From Mobula hypostoma (Eukaryota): a stretch of DNA of 64,000 nt. Every line of letters begins with the position of its first letter. The first letter of the stretch is position 1. Below the pieces are notes generated by a model. That model saw only the letters and a program-made list of their open reading frames with translations. It searched no databases and had not been told where the DNA came from. Where the stretch lies: NCBI RefSeq assembly GCF_963921235.1, contig NC_086097.1, positions 48,610,001 through 48,674,000 on the forward strand, written 5' to 3'. Positions 9,610 through 54,294 of this stretch are shown here, piece after piece. The translations under genes were made by a program, and so were the position numbers.

Positions 9610-11596
9610 ATATTGATAAAGTTCACTGGTTTGACCACATATCCAGATGACTCATGAATATAGGAGAATATACCACATATTTTGTACAAACTGTTTTCAT
9701 AATTGGGTATTTGGGATATTATCTTTCCATTTTATCAAACCAAGCTATAGTTAAATAAATCAATTCTGCTTACAGAATTCCTGCACAGAACCAGCACATT
9801 TAAATCCTTTTGGCCAATGGTTTGATTACCTGCAGGCAAAGAAAAATGATTTGTGAACAGTGTTTCATTAACACTGTGCTGGCTATGTTCTTTACCTGGC
9901 CCTCCTGTAGGGATTATAAAGAACTTTGCTAATAACAAAGACTGCTTGTGTTCCTCAATTAACTCATAGTGTGGATGAGATAAAAGGTAACCTTTAACAT
10001 TCACAGTAGCCGATATTTACAGACGAAAAAGAGAAGGCACTTTGAAATGAGAATAAAATTTAAACCAACTCACATTCTGCCTTTGTTGCATGTCATTTCT
10101 GTTTCATGAATATCACTGAGAACTTATTTTGCATTGCTTCAATAATTTATGCTGCTAAGTCTTAGAACCACCCAAAAGGAGTAATGGAATATTAATCCAT
10201 CCTGCAGATTTTATGTCATCATTATGCTTTGACTTTATATGTATCCTGTGCCCATGAGGCATAAAATGTGTTCTTTGTGTTTCAGGGACTAACATACAGG
10301 TAATTTCTTCTGATGCTATGGTTGTGTAATTTGCATATTCTTTTATCCTACCATTCTATTATGAATACAGATTATTTTATACTTTTTTTGAAGGAACTCT
10401 AAACAGTAGGCACATTAACCACACAAGGGCCTCTCAAATATTCAAATGAGAGTGATTTCCATGGTGATGATACCTAGTAACAATTATGGTCAGTCCATAC
10501 AGCTGAGACACATTGTGGCCCTACACAGAATATATCCTAATGGATTGTTGGTGCAAAGTATTGATTCCACTTTAATTTTCAAATTGTTGGATTTAAAGCC
10601 GTGATATCGTTGTTAATTATAGGTATAATTTTCTATTTGTGTGCCAGCAGTTTTCATTTTTTTAGTAACCAGCGGTGTAATTGGAGCTTACCTTATTGGG
10701 GTGAATATTAGATAAGCTGACTGCTTTGTCCACCACCCAGCAAGTCAATAGAATGATAAATCCTCTAGGGCACATTGGACGGAGGTCAGTCTGATACAAG
10801 CTGTGTAAAGTTACCTCAAATTTAAAATAAAAGCTGTAGAAGCTTAATGGTAATATATCCTTTGAGAGCTGCAAAAAAAAAAATCAAGATTCAAAAATTT
10901 CTGTTCTGTGTGATCAATGTGAATTTAAATGGCTCGGCCAAACTTTTACACTTTACAAACACCTTAAAAGCATTAAGATGCTCCTGAGACCAAAATTCTG
11001 CCATTACATTAAAGCTGAAGATTTTAAATTTTGGCTCTGGCTTGAATTACCAATGACTTCGGGATACTGCTCATCTCGTTTGAGTACCGTGTCTGGGCTT
11101 TACAGATAATTATTTTTCATATTTAATGGACTTAAAGAACACAGCAGTAGCATTATTGACGTATTCCTGACATGATATTTCTTAAGGGTGTTGCATGTGC
11201 TCAGTACCACAAATATCCTAGAATTATGTACTGTCATAGAGCCCACTATAGAATAGGCTTCAACTCATCATTAAACACCCATTTATATGAATTCTACACT
11301 AATTATGTTTTATTCTCCCCACATTCCCATTAACATCCCAAAATTCTATTACCCACCCATACACTTGAGGGAATTTAGAATGGGTAAATAATTGGAATTG
11401 GTTTATTAGTGTCATTTGTACTAAGATACTGGGAAAGGCTTGTCTTGCATACCACTCTTGCAGATTAATTCATTGAGGCAGAACAAGGTAAATCAATACC
11501 AGAATACAAAATAAAGTGCAACAGCTACAGAGAAAGTGCAGGGCAAGTAGTTAATAAGGTGCAGGATCATAATGAGGTAGATTGTCTGGTAAGGAG

Positions 11597-12165
11597 CCCT
11601 CCTCTGGTCGGGGTTGACTGCGGATGTTCTAGCTGTCTATGAACCATCAGTCAATGTGAAAGCTAGGGCAGTCCGATATGGAGAGCAAGCTGTTGCCCAG
11701 TTAGCAGGCTCCGTGCAGCTGATGAATACAGTTCGGCACCAGCAGCTTCGCAGGAGTTGCCAGTCAGCGTGGAAATCAACATAGGACTGCCTTAGGGACT
11801 CCAGCTCTGGATTTTTTCTTGGGGTTTACTTCCATAGCCTTGACTGTGAGTGGGTATGGCCATAAAGCAGCTAAGTTTTGAGATCAGAGTTTCCCTTCTC
11901 CTGGATAAGCTGCCAGCCAAGGCTGATGAGCCATATCTGCCTGGTGACTGGTTTAAGACACTATTAACCCGCCTTTGCCCTTTCTCCTGTCAGCAGAAAC
12001 TGTTCCACCAAGCTTAGTAGCTAAGCCACATGTAAAAGCCAGGAGCTGGACTTGGTTGTCAGAGGTTATTTGAGGCGCATGCCATTGGGAGCATTTAAAA
12101 GGAAGTGGGAGCTTATTCCCTCCCCTCCCCACCCCACCCCCCAGTTATGACAACCTTAAGGAACC
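11597..12165 (-). mobile_element. ~570-bp non-coding RTE-related non-autonomous retroposon, apparently full length
   Basis: Reverse-complement homolog of 52811-53295; carries an RTE 5'-UTR-like ggagaagg-aaactctga motif; interrupts the Rex element. Confidence 0.7.
11984..12165 (-). ncRNA. Putative HDV/CPEB3-like self-cleaving ribozyme (degenerate copy)
   Basis: Minus strand: P1 GGTTCC/GGAAC(A), P2 CTCCTG/CAGGAG, P3 GCT/GGT, L3 TTTACAT, GT after P1, J4/2 CTGA; G1 coincides with the element 5' end. Confidence 0.6.
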
Positions 12166-14074: not shown

Positions 14075-17000
14075 ACACCAGACATTCTGCAGATACTGGA
14101 AATTCAGAGCAACACACAGCAAATGCTGGTGGACTCAGCATGTCAGGCAACATCTATATGGAGAGGAAGAAGCAATTGACTTTTCAGGACAAGATGCTTC
14201 ATCAGGACTGGAAAGGAAGGGGGAAGAAACCAAAGTATGAAGATGGAGGGGGGGAAGGAGCACAAGCTGGCAGGTGATAGGTGAAACAGATGAGTAGGTG
14301 GAGGAAGGGAGATGAAGTAAGACGGTAAGTAGGTGATAGGTGGAAGAGGTAAAGGGCTGATGAAGAAGGGCTCTGATAGAAAGGTCTGTGGACTATAAGA
14401 CCATAAGACATAGGAGCAGAATTAGGTCATCTGGCGCATTCAGTCTGCTCTGCCATTCAATCATGGCTGATCCTTTTTGTTAATCTCCTCCTCAACCCCA
14501 GTTCCTGGCCTTCTCCCCATAACCTTCGATGCCATGTCCAGTCAAGAACCTATCAATCTTTGTCTTAAATACACCCAACGACCTGGCCTCCACAGCTGCA
14601 TGTGGCAACAAATTCCACAAATTCACCACCCTTTGGCTAAAGAAATTTCTATGCATCTGTTTTGAAAGGGTGCCCCTCTATCCTGAGGCTGTACCCTCTT
14701 CTAGACTCTCCCACCATGGGAAACATCCTTTCCACATCTACTCTGTCTAGGCCTTTCAACGTTTGAAAGATTTCAATGATTTACGATGCCCCCCCGCCAA
14801 CCTTCTGAATTCCAGCGAGTACAGACCCAGAGCCATCAAATGTTCCTCGTATCATAACCCTCTCATTCCTGGAATCATCCTTGTGAACCTCCTCTGGACC
14901 CTCTCCAATGCCAGCACATCTGAGATGAGGGACCCAAAACTGTTCACAATACTCATGGTGAGGTCTCACCAGTGCGTTATAAAGCCTCAGCATCACATCC
15001 TTGCTCTTGTATTCTATACTTCTTGAAATGAATGCTAACATGGCATTTGCCTTCCTCAACACCAACTCAACCTGCTTGTTAACCTTCAGGGTGTTCTGCA
15101 CAAGGACTCCCAAGTCTCTCTGCATCTTAGATTCCTGGATTTTCTCCTCAAATAGAAAATAGTCTGCACATTTATTTCTACTACCAAAGTGCATGACCAC
15201 ACATTTTCCAACATATTATTTTATTTGTCCTTTTTTTGGCCATTCTCCTAATCTGTCTAAGTCTTTTTGCATCCTACCTGTTTCCTCAACATTACCTGCC
15301 CCTCCACCAATTTTTGTATCATCTGCCATCTTGACAACAAAGCCATCTATTCCATCATCTAAATCATTTATTTACAGCATAAAATTAAGTGGTCCCAACA
15401 CTGACCCCTGTGGAACACCACTGGTCACTGGCAGCCAATCAGGAACGGATCCTTTCATTCCCACTCGCTGCCTCCTACCAATCACCCAATACTCTAACCA
15501 TGTTTGTAACTTTCCTGTAATACCATGGGCTCTTAACTTGGTAAAGCAGCCTCATGTGTGGCACCTTGTCAAAGGCCTTCTGAATGTCCAGATATACAAC
15601 AACCACTACATCCCCTTTGTCTATCCTACTTGTAATCTCCTCAAAGAATTCTAACAGGATTGCCAGGCAGGATTTTCCCTGAAGGAAATCATGCTGACTT
15701 TGTAATATCTTGTCCTGTGTCACCAAGTACTCCATCACTTCATCCTTAACAATCGACTCTAACATCTTCCCAACCACTGAGGTCAGGCTAACTGGTCTAT
15801 ATTTTCCTTTGTGCTGCCTTTCACTTTTCTTAAAGAGTGGAGTAACATTTGTAATTTTCCAGTCCTCTGGCACCATGCCAAAGTCCAATGATTTTTGAAA
15901 GATCATTTCTAATGCCACCACAATCTCCAACACTACCTCTTTCAGAACCCCTAGGGTGCAGTTCCTCTGGTCCATGTGATTTATGTACCTTTAAGTCTTT
16001 AGGCTTTTTGACCACCTTCTCTCTTGTAACAGTAACTGCACCCACTTCTCTTCCTTCACACCACAACATCAGGCACACTGTTAGTGTCTTCCAGAGGGAA
16101 GACTGACACAAAATACTTATTTAGTTCATCAGCTATCTCCTTGTCCCCTGTTATTATTTCTCCTGCCTCATTTTCTAATGGTCCTATATCCACTCCCATT
16201 TCTCTTTTATTTTTAACATACTTGAAAAAACTTTTACCATCCACTTTGATATTATTTGCTAGCTTGCTTTCATATTTCATCTTTTCCCTTCCAATGATTT
16301 TTTTTAGTTGCTCCCTGTATGTCTTTAAAAACTTTCCAATCCTCTATCTTCCCACTAATTTTTGCTTTTTTGTATGCCCTTTCTTTTGCTTTTACATTAG
16401 CTTTGACTTCCCTTGTCAGTCATGGTTGTACTATTTTATCATTTGAATATTTTTTTCATTTTTGGAATACACATGTCCTGCACCTTCCTCATTTTCCCCA
16501 GAAACACACACCATTGCTGCTCTGCTGATATCCCTGCCAGTGCTCCTTCTAATTTACTTTGGCTAACTCCTCTCTCATACCACTGTAATTTCCCTTACTC
16601 CATTGAAATACTGCAACGTCAGACTTTACTTTCTCCCCATCAAATTTCAAGTTGAACTCAATCATATTGTGATCACTGGTTCCTAATGGTTCTTTTACCT
16701 TAAGCTCCCTAATCGCTTCTGGTTCAATACATAACACCCAATCCAGCTGACCTCCTAGTAGGTTCAATGACAAGCTGTTCTAAAAAGCTATCTCTTAGGC
16801 AGTCAACAAACTCACTCTCTTGAGATCCATTACCAACCTAATTTTCCCAATCAACCTGCATGTTAAAATCTCCTATGATTACCGTAACATTGTCCTTTCG
16901 ATGTGCCTTTTCTATTTCTTGGTGTAACCTGTGGTGCACCTCCCAGCCACTGTTGGGAGACCTGCATATAACTGCCATCAACATCCTGATAGGAGAAAGG

Positions 17001-30349: not shown

Positions 30350-31060
30350 TTGGGATGGGTGCAGAAAGTCAGACAAGCCAAAGCATTGATATGTTCAGAT
30401 TCATCCTCAGTTCTAGCAAGTTTAAGGCCTTTTCACACAAACAGTCAGCAAGATGTACTTTATGAAGTCCTTCAGTTAGTTACAAGAATTGCAAATCAGG
30501 GAGGTCAGGTAAAATTTCTATGGGTTCCAGCACATGTAGGGGTGAAGGGGAATGAGAGGGTGGATGAGTTGGCAAAGAGGGCGTTAAAGAAAGTAAATGT
30601 GGAAATGCACATTAGTATCAGTAAAGCAGAGGTTAAGTGTGTAATCTGGGAAAAAGTCAACCGAATGTGGCAAGAAAGATGGGACAGGGAGGGGAAAGGG
30701 AGGCATTTATATCAAATACAAAAGAGTGTTGCAGTTACTAGGGTAGGTAATGGAAACAGAAGAGAGGAAATTGTGTGGACTAGGTTAAGGCTGGGGCATT
30801 GTGCATTAAACAAAACATTGAAAATGATAGGGAAACACCAGACAGGATTGTGTGAGGAATGTCAGGAAGAGGAGTCAGTAGAACATGTAGTTCTGAGCTG
30901 CAGGAAGTATGGGATACAGAGAGAGATGATGAGAAATAAATTAAGGGAGTTGGGGGTGCAGGAATTCACATTAAAAGGGTTGCTGGGCATGGGTGAGAGA
31001 GCACAAGTCCGGGTATTTTTAGCGTTTTTAAGGGGTACAGGGTTTTTTTATAGAATATGA
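30350..31060 (+). CDS. LINE ORF2 C-terminus: RNase H domain and CCHC zinc knuckle (truncated, transposon-derived)
   Basis: ICSDSSSVL...KFLWVPAHVGVKGNERVDELAK (RNase H) and RLRLGH...CEECQEEESVEHVVLSC. Confidence 0.85.
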   Translation: MGWVQKVRQAKALICSDSSSVLASLRPFHTNSQQDVLYEVLQLVTRIANQGGQVKFLWVPAHVGVKGNERVDELAKRALKKVNVEMHISISKAEVKCVIWEKVNRMWQERWDREGKGRHLYQIQKSVAVTRVGNGNRREEIVWTRLRLGHCALNKTLKMIGKHQTGLCEECQEEESVEHVVLSCRKYGIQREMMRNKLRELGVQEFTLKGLLGMGERAQVRVFLAFLRGTGFFYRI

Positions 31061-35597: not shown

Positions 35598-35941
35598 TCA
35601 TAATAAATTTACTTTGAAATGTGGTTCCCAGAGAATTAGCAATTTTGGCCTCTGAAATAACAATGATCTACCTATTTTTGTGGAGTTCAGAGTCAGTCTG
35701 ATAAGCCAGTTTGTAAGTTAAATGACTCAATGCATTTTATTGGTAGTTGGTTTGTTATTGTCATATGTACCAAGGTAGAGTGAAAGACAATACTTACATG
35801 CCATCCATTGCGATCATTTCAAAACATAAATAGATCAAGATAATACAAAGTGCAGCCTTGCCCCCAGAGGACTTAAGGAAACTCTCAGCCATGTTACTTA
35901 TATTACACTATTTTATGACAACCTAACTACTAAGTCAATTA

Positions 35942-36161
35942 ACACACACAAAATGCTGGTGGAACGCAACAGGCCAGGCAGCATCTATAGGAAGAAGTAC
36001 AGTTGACGTTTCGGGCCAAGACCCTTCATCAGGACTAAGGTCTCGGCCCGAAATGTCGACTGTACTTCTTCCTATAGATGCTGCCTGGCCTGCTGAGTTC
36101 CACCAGCATTTTGTGTGTGTTGCTTGAATTTCCAGCATCTGCAGATTTCCTCGTGTTTTCA
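35942..36161. mobile_element. Penelope mini-insertion of two inverted pLTR pieces (83-bp arms, 15-nt spacer)
   Basis: Arms 35941-36023 and 36039-36121 are complementary at 78/83 positions; TSD tactaagtcaatta/tactaaatcaatta (35928-35941 / 36162-36175). Confidence 0.9.
36001..36036 (-). ncRNA. Minimal type I hammerhead ribozyme motif, best-preserved copy
   Basis: Minus strand AGTC-CTGATGA-AGGGTCTTGGCCC-GAAAC-GTC-AACT: intact core, helix II GGG/CCC and GUC cleavage triplet. Confidence 0.75.
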
Positions 36162-46549: not shown

Positions 46550-48233
46550 GAAACATAGAAAATAGGTGCAGGAGTAGGCCATTCGGCCCTTCGAGCCTGC
46601 ACCGCAATTCAGTATGATCATGGCTGATCATCCAACTCAGAACCCTGTACCAGCCTTCCCTCCATACCCTCTGATCCCTTTAGCCACAAGGGCCATATCT
46701 AACTCCCTCTCAAATATAGCCAATGAACTGGCCTCAACCGTTTCCTGTGGCAGAGAATTCCACAGATTCACCACTCTCTGTGTGAAGAAGTTTTTCCTCA
46801 TCTCGGTCCTAAAAGGCTTCCCCTTTATCCTCAAACTGTGACCCCTCATTCTGGACTTCCCCAACATCAGGAACAATCTTCCTGCAACTAGCCTGTCCAA
46901 TCCCTTTAGGATTTTATATGTTTCAATAAGATCCCCCCTCAATCTTCTAAATTCCAGCGAGTATAAGCCTAGTTGATCCAATCTTTCATCATATGAAAGT
47001 CCTGCCATCCCAGGAATCAAACTGGTGAACCTTCTTTGTACTCCCTCTATGGCAAGGATGTCTTTCCTCAGATTAGGGGACCAAAACTGCACACAATACT
47101 CCAGGTGTGGTCTCACCAAGGCCTTGTACAACTGCAGTAGTACCTCCCTGCTCCTGTACTCGAATCCTCTCGCTATAAATGCCAGCATACCATTCGCCTT
47201 TTTCACCGCCTGCTGTACCTGCATGCCCCCTTTCAATGACTGGTGTATAATGACACCCAGGTCTCGTTGCACCTCCCCTTTTCCTAATCGGCCACCATTC
47301 AGATAATAATCTGTTTTCCTGTTTTTGCCACCAAAGTGGATAACCTCACATTTATCCACATTAAGTTGCATCTGCCATGAATTTGCCCACTCACCTAACC
47401 TATCCAAGTCACCTGCATCCTCTTAGCATCCTCCTCACAGCTAACACTGCCGCCCAGCTTCGTGTCATCCGCAAACTTGGAGATGCTGCATTTAATTCCC
47501 TCATCTAAGTCATTAATATGTAGTGTAAACAACTGAGGTCCCAGCACTGAGCCTTGCGGTACCCCACTAGTCACTGCCTGCCATTCTGAAAAGGTCCCGT
47601 TTATTCCCACTCTTTGCTTCCTGTCTGCCAACCAATTCTCTATCCACATCAATACCTTACCCCCAATACTGTGTGCTTTAAGTTTGCACACTAATCTCTT
47701 GTGTGGGACCTTGTCAAAAGCCTTTTGAAAATCCAAATATACCACATCCACTGGTTCTCCCCTATCCACTCTACTAGTTACATCCTCAAAAAATTCTATG
47801 CGATTCATCAGACATGATTTTCCTTTCACAAATCCATGCTGACTTTGTCCGATGATTTCATTGCTTACCAAATGTGCTGTTATCACATCTTTGATAACTG
47901 ACTCTAGCATTTTCCCCACCACCGATGTTAGGCTAACCGGTCTATAATTCCTCGGTTTCTCTCTCCCTCCTTTTTTAAAAAATGGGGTTAGATTAGCCAC
48001 CCTCCAATCCTCAGGAACTAGTCCAGAATCTAAAGAGTTTTGAAAAATTATCACTAATGCATCCATTATTTCTTGGGCTACTTCCTTAAGCACTCTGGGA
48101 TGCAGACCATTTGGCCCTGGGAATTCATCTGCCTTTAATCCCTTCAATTTACCTAACACCACTTCCCTACTAACATGTATTTCCCTCAGCTCCTCCATCT
48201 CACCAGACCCTCTGTCCCCTACTATTTTTGGAA
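46550..48233 (-). mobile_element. Young 5'-truncated CR1 LINE; RT nearly intact with one frameshift at ~47410
   Basis: ORF 47395-48270 (NYRPVSLTSVVGKMLE, GVPQGSVLGPQLF, KFADDTKL) and ORF 46637-47407; possible TSD tagtta (46544-46549 / 48234-48239). Confidence 0.95.
46637..48230 (-). pseudogene. CR1 ORF2 reverse transcriptase, split by a single-base frameshift
   Basis: MQVTWIG and MDRLGEWA join as MQGDLDRLGEWA if one G is restored. Confidence 0.85.
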
Positions 48234-48399
48234 TAGTTAATACACATAAGGAAGCCCTAGATATCATCAATCAGATATTTGATAAGTACCTATTCAAAAA
48301 TATCACCTGATGAATATAATCTCCAAGGGTGTACTCCCATTAAAACCATCTTTACATTTGAACCCCTACTGTACACTGAAGTGAAATAACCCTGTTATA

Positions 48400-52810: not shown

Positions 52811-53295
52811 AGCTCCAGCTCCCGGCCTTCATGTGTGTCTTAACTACTAAGCCCAGTGGAACTGTTTCTACTGACAGGAGAAGGGGCAAAGGCGGGATAC
52901 TGGCACCTTAAAACCAGTCACTTCAGGCAGATGGGGCTCATTAGCCATGGTTGGCAGTTCATCTAGGAGAAGGAAAACTCTCATCTCAAACATCTGCTGC
53001 CTTGCGGCTATACACACTCACGGGGAAGGCTTCGGGAGTAATCCCTGGGGGAGAAATCCAGTGCTGGAGTCCCTAAGGCAGTCCTACATTGAGTTAAACA
53101 TTGACTGGCAACTCCTGCGACGCTGCTGGTACCAAACTGTATCGGTCTCTGCCGTTCCTTTGGGTTTGTCAAATGCATGGCGAGGGGGATGCTTGCTACA
53201 TGGCAACAGCTTGCTCTCCATATTGTACTGCCCAACTGGCGTATCTAGACAGCTAGGATGCAATATCCATGGTCAACTCTGACTGATGGAGGCCT
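52811..53295 (+). mobile_element. 5'-truncated copy of the RTE-related non-coding element, with the 3' part of the HDV-like fold at 52819-52880
   Basis: Homologous to the reverse complement of 11597-12050. Confidence 0.75.
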
Positions 53296-54294
53296 CAGCA
53301 GGTGATGAGTGAAACTGGGAGGGAGGAGGGGTGAAGTCAAGGGCTGGGAAGCTGATAGGTGAAAGAGATAAAGGGTGGGAGAAGGGGGAAGCTGATAGGA
53401 GAAGGTCGAAAATTATGGAAGAAAGGGAAGGGAGGAGACCAGATAGAGGTGATGGGCAGGTAAGGAGATAAGGTGAGAGAGGGAAATGGGAATGGGGAAT
53501 AGTAAAGGGGAGGGGGATATTATTGGAAGTTTGAGAAATCAATGTTTCTGCCATCAGGTTGGAGGCAACCAAGATGGAATATAATATGTTGCTCCTCCTA
53601 CCTGAGTGTGGCCTCATCATTGCAGTAGAGGAATACTCACATGTTGGAATGGTATGGGGAGTAGAAGTAAAATGGGTGGCCATTGGGAGATTCTACTTTT
53701 TCTGGCAGACAGAGCATTGGTGCTCAGTGAAGCAGTCTCCCAATTTACGTTGGGACTCACCAATATACAGGAGGCCTCACCGGGAGAACCAAGCACAATA
53801 TATAATCCCAACAGGCTCACAGGCAAAGTGTCACCTCACCTGGAAGGACTGTTTGGGACCCTGAATGGTAGTGAGGGAGGAGGTGTAGGGCCCAGTGCAG
53901 CACTTGTTCTGCTTGCAATGATGAGTGCCAGGAGGGAGATCAGTGGGGAGGGACAAATGGACAAGGGAGTCACGTAGGGCGTGATCCTTGCAGAAAGCAG
54001 AAATGGGGGGAGATGTGCTTGGTGGTGGGATCCCAATGGCAGAAGTTATGGAGAATTATGTGCTGGATGAGGAGGCTGTGAAGTAGTAGATGAGGACAAG
54101 AGGAGCCCTATACCTGGTGGGATGGAAGGAGGATGGGGTGAGGGCAGACATATACGAAATGGAAGAGATTCAAGTGAGGGCAATGCTGATGATGGAGGCA
54201 GGGAAGACCCTTTCCTTAAAGAAGGAGGATATCTCCTTAATTGTCTCCATTCTGACATGTTAGTCCATGGCCTCCTCCACTGCCGTGGTGAGGC

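Follow-up and report, generated by a model that had tools for sequence, protein, structure and literature searches.

The window analysed here, a 64,000-nt stretch of the Mobula hypostoma genome (contig NC_086097.1, positions 48,610,001 to 48,674,000), holds two copies of a retroposon that we designate family A. Copy 1 lies on the minus strand at 11594..12165; it is full-length, decayed and nested inside another repeat, uninterrupted copies of which, at loci L032 and L013, align to its joined flanks with about 9 extra nt. Read along the minus strand, copy 1 opens with the 5' strand of P1 (12160..12165), whose G1 marks both the start of the element and the point of predicted cleavage. There follow a 114-nt J1/2 (12046..12159), closed by an 8-bp stem of 12155-12148 with 12061-12054; the 5' strand of P2 (12045-12040); P3 and L3 (12039-12028), with a CPEB3-type L3 heptamer and a 2-nt spacer; a hairpin of 7 bp and a 3-nt loop inserted in L3 (12011..12027), which is absent from sister family B; the P3' and P1' strands (12001..12009); the GT that is the partner in P1.1, with a 5-nt loop in place of P4 (12000-11994); and J4/2, reading CTGA, with the P2' strand (11993-11984), the candidate catalytic C being at 11993. 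Farther along the same strand, 11876..11943 resembles the conserved RTE 5'UTR domain of Kojima 2018, and 11594..11650 is the 3' end of the element, where other copies carry a few short tandem units and then the TSD.

Copy 2 (52813..53297, plus strand) is 80% identical to copy 1 across 329 nt. The preliminary description, which proposed an HDV/CPEB3-like ribozyme at the exact 5' end of a non-coding retroposon, placed every segment of copy 1, and the second core at 52819-52880 on the plus strand, where we find them; what it had not recognised is that copy 2 is 5'-truncated, starting near 52813, and has no 5' strand of P1. Its statement that both copies are mutated holds. In copy 1, two key bases of the L3 heptamer (within 12028..12045) are mutated, the losses of this copy being the L3 G, the P1.1 C and the partner of G1; copy 2 is without P1; and both are probably dead. 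Elsewhere in the window, 35932-36130 is a 200-bp imperfect palindrome (88%) formed by a short repeat and its inverted copy; further copies of this repeat recur across the window. At 30350-31060 (plus), 46637-48270 (minus) and 14781-15990 (minus) there are open frames of 144-291 codons that resemble fragments of other retroelements (RNase H-like; CR1-type RT).

With copy 1 as query, the 3.48-Gb genome returned 9,754 first-look candidates for family A, a lower bound on its copy number, and all 40 of those that were scored matched; the 62-nt core, at no more than 3 mismatches, occurred at 197 places, compared with none for the reversed control. We studied 90 loci as three sets of 30, for which the selecting sequence was the whole element, the core alone or the 3' end alone. 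Of these loci, 63 contained the head (26, 22 and 15 per set, respectively), and 5' truncation left 15 of the 30 copies selected on the 3' end without it. Full-length copies start at G1, as had been proposed, and the boundary is sharp: the commonest base reaches 78-94% at positions 3-15 and just 30-52% in columns -25 to -2, and alignments extended to the first bases in 17 of the 30 core-selected copies and in 14 of the 30 selected on the 3' end. A T stands at -1 in 39 of the 63 copies (62%), exceeding the flank background, and is probably either a target preference or an untemplated base.

Copies with both ends (n = 44) have a median length of 586 nt (range 545-869). A TSD of at least 10 nt flanks 17 of these 44 full copies, in contrast to 18 of 1,892 mismatched flank pairs (1%), and many TSDs adjoin G1. 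Short tandem tails are typical of RTE elements; at the 3' end of family A such units are present in some copies only. The longest ATG frame has a median of 59 aa over the 63 copies, tblastn of 120 RTE-type proteins gave no match to the element, and ARAGORN, a weak test for decayed heads, found a tRNA in none of four loci. Taken together, the sequence evidence supports the view that family A is a non-coding retroposon mobilised by target-primed reverse transcription, with RTE-type 5'UTR sequence and, as already put forward for the window copies, without a tRNA head. The family is present in sequencing runs from at least 8 organisms, and in three runs, from related organisms, its boundaries are identical. 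It also occurs in contigs of two runs that are possibly RNA, and contigs cannot show RNA ends. In one locus (L030:2060-2114), just downstream of a family A copy, another repeat is headed by a Twister-P1-like motif (30.8 bits, E = 0.0026, below gathering).

The majority bases of 82 aligned copies pair as a P1 of 6 bp, a P2 of 6 bp and a P3 of 3 bp. J1/2 is 104 nt and is closed by an 8-bp stem; L3 consists of a CPEB3-type heptamer plus a 20-nt insert with a 7-bp hairpin; and GT, 5 nt, CTGA and P2' come after. The earlier values for J1/2, 114 nt with a G-run, are right for copy 1 and do not carry over to the family, the long G-run being peculiar to that copy, and the L3 obtained earlier by undoing CpG decay is the form that most copies carry. 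The computed strand order, P1-P2-P3-L3-P3'-P1'-P1.1-(P4)-J4/2-P2', is that of a nested double pseudoknot in which P1 comprises the 6 bp counted from G1, and genomic 5' ends fall at G1 in families A and B alike. The majority also keeps the U-G reverse wobble of L3, the C-G of P1.1, and the catalytic C and the A of J4/2. By a lenient count, all core pairs and key bases are intact in 5 of the 82 copies, and two natural copies, L031 and L032, carry the complete core without change.

This arrangement of the core is not due to chance. A descriptor in which the length of L3 was left free had a single match in the family majority sequence, at position 1, and none in 20,000 dinucleotide shuffles; when applied to both strands of 742 kb, it passed only L032 and L035. 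Among 20,000 base shuffles, 58 produced an insert of equal stability. Two other ways of reading the hairpin region were considered by eye and rejected: as P4, since P3, P1' and P2' are absent from the required places, and with P3 closing on the first GGC, which would part P3' from P1' and has a probability of 0.0.

Because the departures from the majority within family A are single changes, mostly CpG decay, covariation cannot be drawn from family A alone. We found none in P1, P2 or P3 among the 82 copies, and the covariation term from RNAalifold, run on 10 copies, was just -0.26, the predicted consensus containing P2 and the hairpin but neither P1 nor P3. The HDV-type models of Rfam had no match in the window, in L032 or L035, or in the family B loci; and because they also miss family B, which has no hairpin, the hairpin alone does not explain the miss.

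Covariation emerged from the comparison with family B, which we recovered with a pattern that excluded the P2 of family A: it matched 19 places in the genome, compared with 2 for the control, and 15 of the 19 are family B. This family is about 530-560 nt long and non-coding, contains the RTE 5'UTR domain twice, and numbers 1,204 first-look candidates, again a lower bound. Its P3, L3 heptamer, GT, 5-nt L4 and CTGA are as in family A, with no insert. P1 reads GGGGAC/GTCCCT in family B and GGTTCC/GGAACC in family A, with three pairs changed on both sides and one on one side; the three core-proximal pairs of P2 are all changed on both sides, and the P2 of family B is longer, with five further pairs beyond a one-base bulge. 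The first hexamer of family B was predicted from P1' in advance and fitted in full in two of four copies, the other two being mutated. These four copies (L118-L121) have a common 5' boundary, and among the 39 best non-self matches of family B, 20 start within 3 nt of G1, 13 start inside by 3-16 nt and 6 start upstream. Pairs were mapped between the families by position and not by a tool, an alignment of A and B with MAFFT having misplaced the gap; and since the covariation rests on two lineages, each change is a single event. At the level of sequence, the comparison confirms P1 and P2 as the preliminary description had assigned them, and it places the 20-nt insert between L3 and P3', making L3 27 nt in family A vs. 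7 nt in family B. An HDV/CPEB3-type double pseudoknot in family A is thus well supported.

HDV-like ribozymes occur at the 5' ends of the non-LTR elements R2, RTE and Ingi/L1Tc (review, PMC6765202; R2 survey, PMC3774820). Family A resembles them in strand order, in having G1 at the start of the element, in its 6-bp P1 (6-7 bp being typical of HDV-like ribozymes; PMC3774820), in its long structured J1/2 and in the catalytic C of J4/2, and differs from the R2, RTE and Ingi ribozymes in its L3 of 27 nt with a 7-bp hairpin. The replacement of P4 by about 5 nt, which the preliminary description had counted as part of an undescribed variant, has precedents: the abalone ribozyme has 5 nt in this place and silkmoth R2 is without P4 (PMC3774820), as are the minimal HDV-like and theta ribozymes (PMC10879173), and family B shares the feature. 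The minimal and theta ribozymes differ from family A in their phage tRNA context and short J1/2, and are not known to have an L3 insert.

The core also resembles that of CPEB3, with which it shares a 7-nt L3 core that includes U21-C22 and the ACGU palindrome, a P1.1 of one G-C and one U-U, and GU directly after P1. Unlike family A, CPEB3 and Vingi-2_Gav have a P4 helix and a short J1/2 and are without an L3 insert. We observed that the 5' ends printed for Vingi-2_Gav and Vingi-2_SPur in the PMC5786205 supplement read as CPEB3-type ribozymes that share this L3 heptamer; our literature search found no paper linking Vingi to CPEB3-type ribozymes.

In its overall build, family A is like the bipartite non-autonomous LINEs (RTE-N1/N2_Lch, RTESINE2, Bov-A, NARTc/RIME/SIDER and the R2 SIDEs), which are short and ORF-less, keep the 5' end of a LINE, have no small-RNA head and are flanked by TSDs; it differs in that its parent LINE was not found. 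Kojima 2018 (PMC5786205) already connects the bipartite build with 5' ribozymes, SIDEs and NARTc/SIDER contain HDV-like ribozymes (PMC3414825, PMC4035085), and ribozyme-headed non-autonomous elements are described in all three of these sources, with further related literature in PMC4870747, PMC6326823, PMC11331408, PMC13188248 and PMC8501958. The loss of P4 and the tRNA-less, ribozyme-headed build, and with them the setting of an ORF-less RTE derivative released by a ribozyme, are already known. The L3 hairpin appears to be new: no helix in L3 was found in a comparison outside of which lay figures, Repbase, Dfam and three key papers (Ruminski 2011, on RTE ribozymes; Webb 2009; Webb and Luptak 2011).

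The link to RTE comes from sequence within the body. At about nt 220-280, family A is 77-84% identical, over 38-61 nt, to tRNA-headed SINE copies at 24 public loci, which by eye are the Ceph-SINEs of PMC5786205 in copies without a ribozyme; the same source assigns the segment common to Ceph-SINEs to RTE 5'UTRs, and the RTE-3_BF segment in its supplement is close to family A by eye. Contigs of two bacterial MAGs (L094-L117) are full of cephalopod-type SINEs, and for this reason look like host animal DNA binned with bacteria. Two other metagenome matches were dismissed as GC-rich chance matches without P1 or P2, and viral contigs yielded no homologues.

We searched for an autonomous partner with the ends of family A and found none among the best candidates of the genome searches. 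All 30 loci selected on the 3' end were family A copies or truncations, with no LINE among them, and no alternative sequence was common to the 34 matches that differed in the bases upstream of the 3' motif. A search with DUF6451 gave 145 matches, and the one examined (L091) is a different RTE with other ends. This RTE-type element (L091:557-3613, minus strand) has an open frame of 1,018 codons, a GAA-repeat tail and ends unrelated to those of family A; the free-L3 descriptor detected no HDV-like motif in that locus.

The reading we favor, to which we assign a probability of roughly two-thirds, derives family A from an RTE-clade LINE as a bipartite non-autonomous element, consisting of a ribozyme-headed 5'UTR and a short 3' end that would derive from an RTE 3' end. 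Host promoters would supply read-through transcripts, the ribozyme would cleave directly before G1 to release a unit-length RNA, and RTE protein acting in trans would insert this RNA at a new site by target-primed reverse transcription. The insert would go back to the ancestor of family A, in which a piece of 20 nt, complementary to itself, would have entered between the last base of L3 and P3', the very point at which L3 differs by one base between CPEB3 and genomic HDV. Folding on itself, and presumably pointing outward, this piece would leave the U-G reverse wobble and P1.1 undisturbed; and because it was tolerated, the entire family could have expanded carrying it.

Among 55 copies not selected on the core, divergence from the majority at non-CpG sites is 6.5% in the core without the hairpin, 9.5% in the body, 9.5% in J1/2 and 9.2% in the hairpin, rates that the similarity-based choice of loci may bias. 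The core is less diverged than the body (base-matched column resampling, P = 0.0005, or 0.0023 without polymorphic columns), and conservation of the hairpin does not exceed that of the body (p = 0.9); of the 30 polymorphic columns 1 lies in the core, a count that alone is not significant (P = 0.17). The hairpin segment is kept in 49 of the 51 copies that span the core. The preliminary description had also proposed looking for covariation in the L3 hairpin, and there this expectation failed: we found no compensatory change in it within family A. Being as diverged as the body, the hairpin looks tolerated and not needed.

A separate set of 51 family A copies with a shortened insert shows many deletion lengths, several recurring at short direct repeats, and in 3 of them the piece between two GGC was cleanly removed. 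A hairpin-less subfamily of A is not evident as fixed, and a small one is possible. Families with the P1' of family A and another hairpin gave no matches; L3 inserts with another P1' gave 11 matches vs. 5 for the control, and by eye P3 pairing was present in just one of them, a mutant of family A.

A lesser probability, amounting to about one chance in six, would attach to the idea that the insert killed or crippled the ribozyme, such that an internal promoter or an inherited RNA start sets the G1 boundary, with the core conserved in the role of a promoter or protein-binding site. This idea draws on an alternative fold, similar in energy, in which L3 and P1' are buried: L3 pairs with P3'/P1', lengthening the hairpin, at -54.2 kcal/mol including P2, vs. 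-51.1 kcal/mol for the nested part of the ribozyme fold (P1 and P3) before the pseudoknot helix P2 (about -7.9 as a duplex) is counted. The pairing probability of P3 is 0.0 in a nested model. In addition, L3 lies within the active site and has 7-8 nt in CPEB3 and HDV (10.1101/2022.09.22.508989), and dual promoter-ribozyme heads exist, as in Pr77 of L1Tc (PMC3383444). Against it, P1' remains complementary to the first six bases, and the majority sequence retains P2, the U-G and the catalytic C across several source lineages, which are indicated by linked variants in the body; and what is conserved coincides exactly with the ribozyme core, over 100 nt downstream of the start.

Less probable again is that the hairpin tunes the rate of cleavage, limiting harm to host transcripts that bear the element, whether by nucleating the pairing of L3 with P3'/P1' or by blocking CPEB3-type dimerisation of L3 or a mis-paired P3. 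The hairpin has a pairing probability of 0.95-1.0 and extends into the alternative fold, it masks a second GGC able to mis-pair with P3, and L3 contains the ACGU palindrome that dimerises CPEB3 crystals (10.1101/2022.09.22.508989); moreover, first-look candidates are about eight times as many for family A as for family B (9,754 vs. 1,204, from different queries). Yet the hairpin has neither extra conservation nor compensatory change, and family B amplified without it. Very improbable, finally, is a chimera of an RTE 5'UTR and the 3' end of another LINE clade that mobilises family A, with the ribozyme as described: hybrid elements such as the R2/R1 SIDEs are known (PMC3414825), the 30 loci selected on the 3' end included no LINE, and the 120 RTE-type proteins gave no tblastn match, but the short tandem tails and the TSDs are as expected of RTE, derivatives of RTE with a bipartite build are common (PMC5786205, PMC7245038), and the partner searches covered the best candidates only.

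Elements that bear the insert were copied thousands of times, with ends at G1 and a constrained core, and this fits the favored reading of an active ribozyme with a tolerated insert. In HDV-like ribozymes the active site is formed by L3, which is treated as a loop of 7-8 nt. We hold it to be slightly short of an even chance that family A carries an active HDV-type ribozyme with a sixth helix in this loop, of a kind that descriptors with a fixed L3 length would miss. A natural 20-nt hairpin in thousands of G1-ended copies would show that L3 tolerates a helix, which would widen the descriptors used in searches and offer a new site for engineering, the L3/P3' junction being a tolerated insertion site for aptamers or handles. 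Families A and B would then be a ready pair with and without the hairpin, which may tune cleavage via the alternative fold, and an unsearched class of ribozymes may exist among animal retroposons.
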